A stretch of DNA of 64,000 nucleotides, from the NCBI RefSeq assembly GCF_003334355.1, contig NZ_QOWP01000004.1; one strand, written 5' to 3'. Every line of letters starts with the position of its first letter. Within the stretch, counting starts at the first letter, position 1. Under the pieces are notes generated by a model. The model did no database searches and was not told the DNA's origin. It saw nothing but the letters and a program-made list of their open reading frames with translations. This stretch comes from Escherichia coli (GTDB taxonomy: Bacteria; Pseudomonadota; Gammaproteobacteria; Enterobacterales; Enterobacteriaceae). Below are positions 10,442 through 14,110 of the stretch, piece after piece. The position numbers and the translations under genes were made by a program.

Positions 10442-11569
10442 TTACTGCGGATATTCCTGCAATAAATTGTGTAATGCTTCCGCCATCAGCTCACCACGCC
10501 AGCCGGAAATCAGCTCCGGCAAATTGTTCTGCGGTTTCAGTTTCCAGTGCCAGTTCAGCAGTTGGTTGATTTGCCGACGCGATGCCAGCAATTCGGCGCT
10601 GATCTTATGCGTTTCGCTCACGTCAGTAATCAGCGACTTAATCGCTTTAAACGCTTTACGATAACCAGGCATGTCCATCAGGTTAAGCATCGGCTGCGGT
10701 AAGGCCTCTTCCGGCAATGTCTGCGCTTTTTCCACCAGCGCCAGCAGCGTTTTACCGTGAAAGCGGATTTCGCTACCGGATAAACCCAGGCTGTCCAGTT
10801 CGCCTAAACTTCCCGGCATATAACGCGCTACCGACCACAAATGCTCTTCACGCACGACAAAGTTCACCGCCAGATCGCGCTCTCGCGCCTTGCACAGTCG
10901 CCAGTCGGCTAACAGTTGCAGACAGGCCAGTTGGCGTGTGCGTAACTGCCAGGCATTGGTGATATCACGCCAGGCATCTTCCGGCGCAACAACTTCCTGA
11001 CGACGCATTTGCATCAGGCGGCATTCATCCAGCGCCGCAGGTAGCCAGCCGGAGGCCTCCGTTTCTACCATAAGCTTGGCGGTGATCGGTAACAGATACC
11101 AGACATCAGCCGCTGCGTATTCACACTGACGTTCGGTCAGCGGTCTGGCCAGCCAGTCGGTGCGCGATTCACTCTTGTCCAGCGTAACGCCGGAATACTC
11201 TTCCACCATGGAAGCGAACCCCCATGACATCGGGCGTCCGCAGAAGGCAGCAAGGATTTGCGTGTCAATCAGGGGTTGTGGTAATTCGCCAAAGACATTG
11301 AGGAACACTTCCAGATCTTCACTGCCTGCATGGAGAAATTTTGTGATGGACGGATCGCGCAGGATCGCTTTCAGCGGTGACCAGTCGGTGATCCCGAGAG
11401 GATCAATTAGCGCCAGATGCTCACCATCAAAAAGTTGAATTAAACCCAGCTGCGGGTAATAAGTGCGCGTACGAACAAATTCAGTATCCAGGGCTATCGC
11501 CGGAAAGGCACGGACGGCTTCACACAAAGAAGCCAGCGCATCGTCCGTGGTAATCATTTGGTAATTCAA
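10442..11569 (-). CDS. rnd: Ribonuclease D
   Basis: 375-aa ORF; recognised as RNase D (3-5 exonuclease plus HRDC region). Confidence 0.95.
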   Translation of the reverse strand: MNYQMITTDDALASLCEAVRAFPAIALDTEFVRTRTYYPQLGLIQLFDGEHLALIDPLGITDWSPLKAILRDPSITKFLHAGSEDLEVFLNVFGELPQPLIDTQILAAFCGRPMSWGFASMVEEYSGVTLDKSESRTDWLARPLTERQCEYAAADVWYLLPITAKLMVETEASGWLPAALDECRLMQMRRQEVVAPEDAWRDITNAWQLRTRQLACLQLLADWRLCKARERDLAVNFVVREEHLWSVARYMPGSLGELDSLGLSGSEIRFHGKTLLALVEKAQTLPEEALPQPMLNLMDMPGYRKAFKAIKSLITDVSETHKISAELLASRRQINQLLNWHWKLKPQNNLPELISGWRGELMAEALHNLLQEYPQ

Positions 11570-11593: not shown

Positions 11594-11620
11594 AAAAAAA
11601 ACGCCGGATTAACCGGCGTC
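11594..11620 (-). terminator. Rho-independent terminator after fadD
   Basis: On the minus strand: acgccgg-ttaat-ccggcgt hairpin followed by a T8 run. Confidence 0.7.
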
Positions 11621-11638
11621 TGACGACTGACTTAACGC

Positions 11639-13324
11639 TCAGGCTTTATTGTCCACTTTGCCGCGCGCTTCGTCACGTAATTCTCGTCGCAAAATTTTTC
11701 CGACGTTAGATTTCGGTAACTCATCACGAAACTCCACCAGCTTCGGTACTTTGTAGCCCGTGAGCTGACGGCGGCAAAAGGTCACCAGTGACTCTTCGGT
11801 AAGCGATGGATCTTTTTTCACTATGAAGATTTTCACCGCTTCACCACTGGAGCCGGAAGGTACGCCAACAGCCGCGACTTCCTGTACGCCAGGATGCTGC
11901 ATGACGACATCTTCAATCTCGTTGGGATAGACGTTAAAACCGGAAACCAGAATCATGTCTTTTTTACGATCGACAATGCGCAGGAACCCTTCTTCATCCA
12001 TCACCGCGATGTCGCCGGTGTGTAACCAGCCATTTTTGATGATTTCATCGGTAGCATCGGGACGCTGCCAGTAACCCAGCATCACCTGCGGTCCTTTGAC
12101 ACAAAGCTCACCCGGTTGACCTGGTGGTACTTCATTATCATCATCATCCACCAGTTTGGCTTCCGTCGACGGCACCGGCAAACCGATGCTACCACTATGA
12201 TAATCAATATCATATGGGTTAACGCTGACCAGCGGCGCACACTCGGTAAGGCCATAGCCTTCCAGCAGATACTGTCCGGTCAGTTTCACCCAACGCTCTG
12301 CCACCACTTGCTGCACTGGCATCCCACCGCCTGCGGAAAGATGCAGACTGGAGAAATCCAGCTGCTGGAACTCTTTATTGTTCAGCAACGCATTGAACAA
12401 GGTGTTAACGCCAGTGATAGCGGTAAACGGATATTTCGCTAACTCTTTTACCAACCCTGGAATATCACGCGGGTTAGTGATAAGCAGGTTCTGCCCACCC
12501 AGTTCGATAAACAGCAGGCAGTTAATGGTCAGGGCAAAAATGTGATACAGCGGCAGTGCCGTTACTACCAGTTCTTTACCTGGATGCAGCAACGGCCCAT
12601 AGGTGGCGTTGACCTGTTCCAGGTTCGCCAGCATATTGCGGTGAGTCAGCATCGCGCCTTTCGCCACACCTGTGGTGCCGCCGGTGTATTGCAGGAAGGC
12701 TAAATCTTCCGGCACCAGTTCGGGTTTGACGTACTGCATCCGGTAGCCGTTATGCAGTGCGCTACGAAATGAAATGGCATCTGGCAGATGGTATTTCGGC
12801 ACCAAACGCTTGATGTATTTAACAACGAAATTGACTACCGTGCCTTTTGCCGTAGATAGCTGATCGCCCATACGGGTCAGAATTACGTGCTGAACGGCGG
12901 TTTTATCAACCACTTTTTCCAGTGTGTGAGCAAAGTTAGACACGATAACAATCGCCGATGCGCCGCTATCGTTAAGCTGATGCTCAAGCTCACGCGGGGT
13001 ATACAACGGGTTAACGTTTACGACGATCATCCCGGCACGCAAAATGCCAAACAGCGCCACCGGATATTGCAATAAATTAGGCATCATCAACGCAACGCGA
13101 TCGCCTTTCTTCAGCCCCAACCCTTGTTGCAAATAAGCGGCAAACGCGCGACTGCGTTCTTCCAGCTTGCGGAAGGTCATCACCTCCCCCATATTCACAA
13201 ACGCAGGCTGATCGGCGTAGCGCGCGACCGACTGCTCAAACATATCTACCAGAGATTGATAACGGTCAGGGTTGATCTCCGTCGGAACGTCCGCGGGATA
13301 ACGGTTAAGCCAAACCTTCTTCAA
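11639..13324 (-). CDS. fadD: Long-chain fatty acid-CoA ligase FadD
   Basis: Acyl-CoA synthetase motifs; TTG start at 13322-13324 with GAGG SD gives a 561-aa product ([14 protein letters not shown]...). Confidence 0.93.
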
Positions 13325-13396
13325 TTCTTCACCTCTAAAATGCGTGTTCGTCGTCATCGCAACCCCAAATGATATACATGCTGTTAACATAATATT

Positions 13397-13413
13397 AACT
13401 CATCATACCAGCT
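13397..13413 (-). promoter_or_regulatory. FadR operator 1 of fadD
   Basis: Minus-strand sequence AGCTGGTATGATGAGTT, matching the FadR binding-site pattern. Confidence 0.6.
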
Positions 13414-13482
13414 TGATAATTACCCAACGAAAAGGTTGCGAAGCGCGTCACTATTTATTTTTATCTTTACCGTAAGAATGCA

Positions 13483-13499
13483 GAAACAGCGGACCAGCC
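13483..13499 (-). promoter_or_regulatory. FadR operator 2 of fadD
   Basis: Minus-strand sequence GGCTGGTCCGCTGTTTC, matching the FadR binding-site pattern. Confidence 0.6.
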
Positions 13500-13528
13500 G
13501 CTGTTTCTTTTTCTTTAAAAACAAGCAA

Positions 13529-14110
13529 TTATTCAGTTACAACTGTTTGTACTCTCGCGGGACCGGGATTATACCAGCCCCATCCGCCGTAGCCATAGGG
13601 CCAGCCACGACCGCCATAAAACCATGGATCAATCGGCTGAGGCGGCATAATCACCTGCTGGGTTAAATGCCAACGTTTGTAACCCGTTACTTGCATCACC
13701 ATAAATTTATAGGGCGTATTGCCGATTTTGCCGTCAACCGCACCAGTGATTGGCCCGACTACCGTAACCAGTTGTCCACGGAAATCCACCGGGTCCAGAA
13801 AACCGTTCACATCGGCATAAATGCGACCGCGAGAAGGTTCTCCCAGCGTCGGTCTGGCTCCGCTGTCCAGCGGTACGGTAGCAATTTCCAGGCGGGTTTT
13901 CCCTTGCTGGTTTTGTACCGCAACCACTTTGCCACCAAAGCGTGCCTCCTGACCAACGTACAGCTGCGGCGCACTCATCACCCGAACTAAATCTTGTTGC
14001 GGCGTGGGACTGCTGCCTTTAATGGCGTCCGGCACAGTGACACAACCGCTCAGCATTAGCGCAAACGTACCTGCCAGTATGCCTTTGATAACATTCTTTT
14101 GAACCGCCAT
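13529..14110 (-). CDS. yeaY: Slp-family outer-membrane lipoprotein YeaY
   Basis: 193 aa with signal peptide and lipobox (LMLSGC); recognised as YeaY. Confidence 0.9.

Follow-up and report, generated by a model that had tools for sequence, protein, structure and literature searches.

The control region of fadD, the Escherichia coli gene for the long-chain-fatty-acid--CoA ligase, raises two questions: where translation begins in a gene whose TTG start codon is preceded by ATG codons in the same frame, and why one of the two operators of the repressor FadR lies about 100 bp upstream. Both were addressed in a stretch of 64,000 nucleotides from E. coli contig NZ_QOWP01000004.1 (assembly GCF_003334355.1), called the window below, in which the control region takes up positions 13325-13528 and fadD is read from the minus strand (the gene strand). 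In all probability, the region combines the canonical sigma-70 promoter of fadD with its translation-initiation region. The start codon is UUG. The distal FadR site is best read as a weak, lineage-restricted FadR half-site lying on the terminator hairpin of the preceding gene, yeaY. The TTG start, the transcription start site (TSS) and both FadR operators have been known since 1992 and were re-validated in 2012 and 2014. What is added here is that the distal site rides on a covarying yeaY hairpin while being itself unconserved, that the weak start codon is kept order-wide, and that an in-frame AUG 11 codons upstream of it, earlier only predicted, is documented comparatively.

Locus, promoter and proximal operator

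According to the list of open reading frames (ORFs), the gene order around the region is rnd, fadD, yeaY, tsaB and yoaA, all on the minus strand. A 701-bp query spanning the control region was 100% identical to several E. coli chromosomes and was found in every one of the 5426 complete E. coli genomes, the annotation beneath the matches being fadD and yeaY. A 231-bp query confined to the control region gave at least 95% identity in all but three of these genomes. Two bases set the window apart from MG1655 in the interval 13300-13577, one of them in the control region (13382, beside the TSS), and all sites are intact. The region is the E. coli chromosomal rnd-fadD-yeaY-tsaB locus with the textbook fadD promoter.

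For comparison, the window was combined with 80 fadD loci, one genome per species, from across Enterobacterales; these 81 sequences are phylogenetically related, and the counts given below are not independent. Four blocks are conserved in sequence in their upstream alignment: the CRP site, the proximal FadR operator, the -10 element with the TSS, and the Shine-Dalgarno (SD) sequence with the start codon. The two genes and the elements of the promoter are as follows.

11639..13324, minus strand: fadD coding sequence (CDS), long-chain-fatty-acid--CoA ligase, 561 aa from the TTG (ORF list; RefSeq MG1655 b1805 and the 100%-identical strain 214-4, both 1686 nt)
13529..14110, minus strand: yeaY, Slp-family lipoprotein, stop codon TAA at 13531-13529 (ORF list, annotation)
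13384, minus strand: fadD TSS, an A, 60 nt upstream of the TTG (distance from Feng & Cronan 2012, PMC3460868, citing Black et al.; position computed here)
13392..13397, minus strand: -10 hexamer TAATAT, placed from the mapped TSS, in a conserved block
13419-13414, minus strand: weak -35 element TTATCA, 16 bp upstream of the -10 hexamer, placed from the mapped TSS
13397..13413, minus strand: proximal, high-affinity FadR operator AGCTGGTATGATGAGTT, -13 to -29, exact match to a published gel-shift probe, consensus score 12/16
13437..13452, minus strand: CRP-cyclic AMP (cAMP) site AGTGACGCGCTTCGCA, class I, centred at about -60.5, within a published CRP probe and conserved across the order
13384..13399, minus strand: direct repeat GTTAA-N6-GTTAA with an 11-bp period, ArcA-box-like, read directly and strongly conserved

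Every 17-mer of the window was scored over 16 positions against aaCTGGTCnGACC(T/A)Gtt, the FadR consensus of a 2022 review. The proximal site, with 12/16, is tied for the best in 64 kb: five of about 128,000 17-mers reach 12, and two of them are this site itself, one per strand. Within the 204-bp intergenic region, the proximal and distal sites are the only 17-mers scoring at least 9/16. In 77 of the 81 sequences, the motif AACTGGTACGCTGAGTT or a near variant of it (site of at least 11/16) is located 85 to 96 nt ahead of the start codon. The proximal operator extends over the promoter spacer into the first -10 base, a position suited to repression.

The gel-shift probes published for the two fadD sites are identical to the window at 13422-13387 and 13507-13475. 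Both sites bind FadR and oleoyl-CoA releases both, in agreement with earlier DNase I footprints (Feng & Cronan 2012, PMC3460868). A 2014 paper from the same laboratory attributed "relatively high affinity" to "fadD probe 2", and its primer table gives the proximal sequence as FadR2. The apparent conflict between the two papers over the stronger site is resolved by this table, in which the site numbers are swapped; according to both papers, FadR binds strongly at the proximal site and weakly at the distal one. This order of affinity fits the consensus scores.

The mapped fadD promoter was not called in a consensus promoter scan of the region. A hit that the scan did return, TTAATA-18-TATCAT, does not line up with the mapped TSS and was put down to chance. 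The CRP probe published for fadD equals window positions 13470-13423 exactly, and the published CRP site is in a class I position (Feng & Cronan 2012, PMC3460868). The GTTAA repeat spans the -10 element and the TSS and adjoins the proximal FadR site. The published ArcA site of fadD overlaps "FadR site 2" by 1 bp, the site numbers being inconsistent between the 2012 and 2014 papers, and the repeat is probably this ArcA site.

In E. coli PEC301 (NZ_CM168013.1) the control region matches in two separate places, with a break at about 13459, between the CRP site and the hairpin discussed below. An insertion in the fadD promoter may be the cause.

The distal FadR site and the hairpin behind yeaY

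Upstream of the CRP site, two features overlap almost completely.

13483..13499, minus strand: distal, weak FadR operator GGCTGGTCCGCTGTTTC, -99 to -115, exact match to a published probe, consensus score 9/16
13482..13508, minus strand: hairpin with an 11-bp stem and a 5-nt loop, AGAAACAGCGG ctggt CCGCTGTTTCT (fold z-score, covariation, yeaY synteny)

The first-pass annotation of this DNA had taken both operators to fit the FadR pattern. The positions that it gave for these and for its other elements were all confirmed by reading the minus strand. Both do coincide with the published footprinted sites, and the proximal one matches the consensus well, but the distal match is at chance level: only its left half, CTGGTC, is intact, and about 1.1% of the 17-mers of the window score 9 or more. 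The distal site is thus not statistically recognisable by sequence and is known because it was footprinted experimentally. It binds FadR more than 10-fold more weakly than the proximal site (Feng & Cronan 2012, PMC3460868) and does not overlap the core promoter. The 2022 review regarded the -100 position as surprising for a repressor and noted that an in vivo test was lacking. Even with two sites, the repression of fadD by FadR is only 2-3 fold.

Starting 21 nt past the yeaY TAA there is a hairpin, and the distal site extends from the top of its 5' arm through the loop and along the 3' arm. The inverted repeat gaaacagcgg (13507-13498) / ccgctgtttc (13492-13483) had already been pointed out as a perfect one of 10 bp, and it is indeed read so at these positions; with the flanking A/T pair the stem extends to 11 bp, of which 6 are GC pairs, around the loop ctggt. 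The fold z-scores are -3.4 (gene strand) and -4.6 (opposite strand), and none of 200 shuffles folded as well. A hairpin follows the yeaY stop codon in nearly all 81 sequences. In 80 of them fadD is preceded by a co-oriented yeaY homologue, and in most the distance from the stop codon of this gene to the start of fadD is about 200-220 nt. Enterobacteriaceae retain CAGCGG/CCGCTG as the core of the stem, and its outer part varies by compensatory substitutions. Across 42 distinct hairpins, 98.5% of the cells are paired (39-69% in slid controls), 4 of the 11 stem pairs have changed on both sides, and none of 500 shuffles reaches the observed covariation score. The loop appears as CTGGT, CTCGT, CTTGT, CTAGT, CCAGT, CGTGT, CATGT and others, and where the closing bases pair it is reduced to 3 nt (TCA, TAA, CTA, CCG and others). 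Erwiniaceae and Yersiniaceae carry unrelated hairpins with a T-run at the equivalent place, and most other genera have 5-10 T within 12 nt past the stem. In Escherichia and Citrobacter the gene-strand T-run is broken (TTTCTGCATTC); past the full stem, the E. coli tail reads GCATTCTTACGG.

Because the stem covaries, the loop varies, T-tails are present elsewhere and yeaY synteny is kept, the hairpin is best read as the intrinsic terminator of yeaY, and it would presumably act as such in E. coli as well. The palindrome had been annotated as something that could be mistaken for a terminator hairpin; the relation is the reverse, since what is conserved is a terminator-type hairpin of yeaY, and a weak FadR site lies on it. 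In an envelope-stress microarray, yeaZ-yeaY-fadD-rnd responded as one sigma-E-induced block, with yeaY induced 2.8-, fadD 2.2- and rnd 1.5-fold. This co-induction points to read-through past the yeaY-fadD hairpin in E. coli, where the yeaY terminator is probably leaky.

Read on the plus strand (13482-13518), the hairpin leads into an unbroken T-run, TTTTTCTTT, which yields the only terminator call of the region. Other genera often have the matching A-tract on the gene strand, 5' of the hairpin. The arrangement resembles a bidirectional terminator, yet there is no converging gene. A terminator on the opposite strand might stop divergent transcription from the fadD promoter.

Several points weigh against seeing in the hairpin a yeaY terminator to which the FadR half-site is incidental. 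The gene-strand tail of E. coli, TGCATTCTT, fails the terminator scan, which made no call on the minus strand and called the hairpin only on the opposite one. No 3' end is recorded between yeaY and fadD in the Term-seq tables of Adams et al. (2021), which is not decisive given the low yeaY expression in the conditions used. The distal site does bind FadR in vitro, as published footprints and gel shifts show, and is hardly a pure coincidence. CTGGT recurs in scattered genera, and most other loops are one or two bases away from it; the CTGGT loop may therefore be an ancestral state that is slowly decaying. The operator positions -13/-29 and -99/-115 reportedly given by Black et al. in 1992 agree exactly with those computed here.

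A rival proposal is that the distal site is a functional auxiliary operator, which would either cooperate with the proximal site or with CRP/ArcA, or act as a roadblock to sigma-E-driven read-through from yeaY into fadD. Besides the binding itself, which acyl-CoA relieves, the proposal can draw on the read-through evident from the co-induction of fadD and rnd with yeaY, on the poor T-tail of E. coli and Citrobacter, and on the surprise expressed in the 2022 review over a position for which an in vivo test was lacking. It is nevertheless doubtful. The CTGGT core is found in 9 of the 81 sequences, within a freely varying loop, whereas the proximal site is near-invariant, and the FadR consensus scores of the hairpins do not exceed 10/16. 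A consensus match at chance level, a binding weaker by more than 10-fold and a merely 2-3 fold repression from two sites count against it as well. In Citrobacter the same poor tail occurs with no half-site beside it, so the leaky tail and the presence of the site are uncorrelated. A roadblock is the less likely because the site is not conserved. The distal site is better regarded as a half-site carried by the yeaY hairpin, and a regulatory role of FadR binding there is unproven.

The UUG start codon and the in-frame AUGs upstream of it

The translation-initiation region contains the following elements.

13322..13324, minus strand: TTG initiation codon of fadD (direct reading; RefSeq start in MG1655 and strain 214-4; comparative counts; EcoGene set)
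13330..13336, minus strand: SD sequence AGAGGTG, 5-7 nt ahead of the TTG (direct reading, conservation, anti-SD duplex)
13355..13357, minus strand: in-frame ATG 11 codons upstream of the TTG, in the 5' untranslated region at +28 from the TSS, a candidate start (at -33 nt in 71/81 sequences; open frame; PMC1805508)
13363..13366, minus strand: GGGG run (GAGG in Erwiniaceae) 5 nt ahead of the -11 ATG, a moderate SD-like element (alignment, duplex)
13388..13390, minus strand: in-frame ATG 22 codons upstream of the TTG, not a start codon (direct reading; opens the 583-aa mechanical ORF)

The TTG is followed by the codons AAG AAG GTT TGG CTT AAC CGT (KKVWLNR). Among the 81 Enterobacterales sequences, the fadD start codon is TTG in 76, GTG in 5 and ATG in none. 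The SD sequence is kept as AGAGGTG or AGGAGT, 5-7 nt from the start, in all of them. Its duplex with the anti-SD has an energy of -7.1 kcal/mol (mean -7.12 over the 81 sequences), a value reached by 3.7% of random CDS windows. In E. coli the GAGG within AGAGGTG lies at 13335-13332, 7 nt 5' of the TTG. The gene (EG11530) is a member of the EcoGene set, in which starts were verified by N-terminal protein sequencing (PMC1805508). Initiation at this TTG behind the GAGG and the disuse of an ATG that would add 22 residues had all been proposed in the first-pass annotation, and they hold: RefSeq has the 561-aa protein, all 81 sequences start with TTG or GTG, the verified set includes the gene, and the SD sequence is conserved. 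The N-terminal sequence of FadD was reportedly determined by Black et al. in 1992.

The leader appears to be open. The 60 nt from the TSS together with the first codons (13325-13384, minus strand) have a minimum free energy of -14.1 kcal/mol, against a shuffle mean of -21.3 (z = +2.3), and 199 of 200 shuffles fold at least as well. RNA structure was considered as the cause of the conservation of the leader blocks and ruled out on this ground. An open leader is consistent with selection for an accessible initiation region around a weak start codon. The order-wide retention of such a codon implies that a sub-maximal rate of initiation has been selected, which would be the reason for its retention.

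The two upstream ATGs bear on this conclusion to very different degrees. Translation from the more distant one (13390-13388) would give the longest ORF, of 583 aa; the frame is open from there, and transcripts reading through from yeaY would include it. This ATG is excluded because it lies upstream of the TSS (13384 is 6 nt downstream of it), falls within the conserved -10/TSS block GAGTTAATATTATGTTAA, runs into a stop or stands out of frame in many genera and has no usable SD sequence, the anti-SD duplex being only -2.8 kcal/mol at a spacing of 15 nt. The curated annotation and N-terminal sequencing likewise favour the TTG, and initiation at the -22 ATG is effectively refuted. The nearer ATG (13357-13355), which the first reading of the sequence had missed, calls for more attention. 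Ribosomes might also start there, giving a 572-aa proteoform of FadD or modulating the use of the UUG; from the comparative sequence data this is an unlikely, though tenable, possibility. The ATG stands exactly 33 nt before the start in 71 of the 81 sequences, with a conserved GGGG or GAGG 5-6 nt upstream, and the block tGGGGtTGyGATGACGAC is kept in Enterobacteriaceae and, with GAGG, in Erwiniaceae. The duplex of the G-run amounts to -5.4 kcal/mol (mean -5.49 over 71 loci), which 13% of random CDS windows reach. None of the 50 unique sequences has a stop in the frame that runs from this ATG into fadD, although one arises about 54% of the time when the 30 interior bases are shuffled; of the two remaining frames, one is closed in 46 and the other in all 50.

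This AUG is located downstream of the TSS in an unstructured leader, and RNA structure does not account for its conservation. The Bayesian start predictor Hon-yaku (2007) preferred it as the "+11" site, assigning it a probability of 0.663 and the verified start one of 0.013, and named fadD among the candidates for multiple translation-initiation sites (PMC1805508). Variation in the codons of the extension is greatest at third positions, yet at 0.71/0.59/0.95 for the three codon positions, compared with 0.19/0.09/0.97 in the true CDS, the three-base periodicity is weak. The ATG is missing in several Yersiniaceae and out of frame in Chimaeribacter, and the sequences that support it are related to one another. 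Purified FadD begins at the UUG, as the EcoGene verified set records. Support from ribosome profiling (Ribo-seq) or N-terminomics was sought in the TRAINSPOTTER 2026 and Salmonella riboproteogenomics supplements, which do not mention fadD. The UUG thus stands as the start of fadD, with the -11 AUG as a candidate beside it.

An upstream ORF in the +1 frame (ATG 13379 to TAG 13335) was rejected, its start being unconserved, 5 nt from the mRNA 5' end and without an SD sequence (+1.2 kcal/mol).

Proposed mode of control, neighbouring genes and known systems

The regulation of fadD very probably proceeds as follows. Transcription starts from the A at 13384 with a good -10 element (TAATAT) and a weak -35 element, aided by CRP-cAMP bound at the class I site 13452-13437. 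FadR on the proximal operator (13413-13397) occupies the spacer together with the first -10 base and blocks RNA polymerase, and long-chain acyl-CoA, the product of FadD itself, releases it. Behind the unstructured 60-nt leader and its strong SD sequence, translation from the UUG at 13324-13322 gives the 561-aa enzyme. The distal hairpin would serve as the yeaY terminator, with a poor T-tail and apparently leaky in E. coli; its loop happens to spell CTGGTC, which gives weak FadR binding in vitro. The two further proposals can also be taken jointly, the -11 AUG being a real second start across Enterobacterales (572-aa proteoform or tuning of the UUG) and FadR on the leaky yeaY terminator gating sigma-E read-through into fadD; the combination is put forward only tentatively and is rather improbable.

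For specialists of the fad regulon, the location in a hairpin loop offers a simple answer to the odd -100 position of the second FadR site, and a non-AUG start kept order-wide beside a conserved upstream in-frame AUG is a small point of interest.

The surroundings of the control region gave some further observations. In an Rfam search the sole match was sroD at the 3' end of fadD, and none fell in the control region. This small RNA (RF00370, 115 bits) lies at 11595-11680 on the minus strand and overlaps the fadD 3' end and terminator; Term-seq 3' ends at the sroD/fadD terminator are found at MG1655 positions 1888017 and 1888020 (Adams et al. 2021). Control of fadD by the small RNA CpxQ was discarded as a candidate, FadD levels being unaffected according to a 2024 preprint. 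The neighbouring gene rnd (RNase D; 10442-11569, minus strand) also has a TTG start in the curated MG1655 annotation, with 1128 nt and 375 aa, equal to the mechanical ORF. TTG makes up about 2% of verified E. coli starts, and two neighbouring genes that start with it are unusual. In strain 214-4 the Prokaryotic Genome Annotation Pipeline (PGAP) gives rnd as 1116 nt, 12 nt shorter than the MG1655 version, presumably from an ATG four codons downstream.

With regard to known systems, the FadR operators of fadBA, fadL, fadE and other fad genes are 17-bp pseudo-palindromes overlapping the -10/+1 region, and the proximal fadD site has the same architecture, position and promoter occlusion relieved by acyl-CoA. 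The distal fadD site, unlike them, consists of a left half-site only, about 100 bp upstream and within a hairpin, and no other fad promoter has such a distal site according to the 2022 review. The verified UUG-start and dual in-frame-start genes of E. coli (e.g. infB) resemble fadD in the weak start codon behind a strong SD sequence and in the possible second in-frame start upstream; in contrast to the dual-start genes, only the UUG product is demonstrated for fadD, the upstream AUG being a prediction. With rho-independent terminators between co-directional genes, the hairpin upstream of fadD shares the GC-rich stem-loop, the compensatory changes in the stem, the free loop and, in most genera, the T-run. 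It departs from them in that the gene-strand T-run of E. coli and Citrobacter is broken while that of the opposite strand is clean, and the co-induction of fadD with yeaY suggests partial read-through. The closest system is the fadD promoter of E. coli K-12 itself, whose operators OD1 and OD2 were reportedly described by Black et al. in the Journal of Biological Chemistry in 1992 (267:25513). It is the same locus, in which the probes for OD1/OD2 match the window base for base and the TSS distance and the TTG start are the same (Feng & Cronan 2012, PMC3460868). The sole difference from the published K-12 promoter is one single-nucleotide polymorphism, at 13382 beside the TSS.

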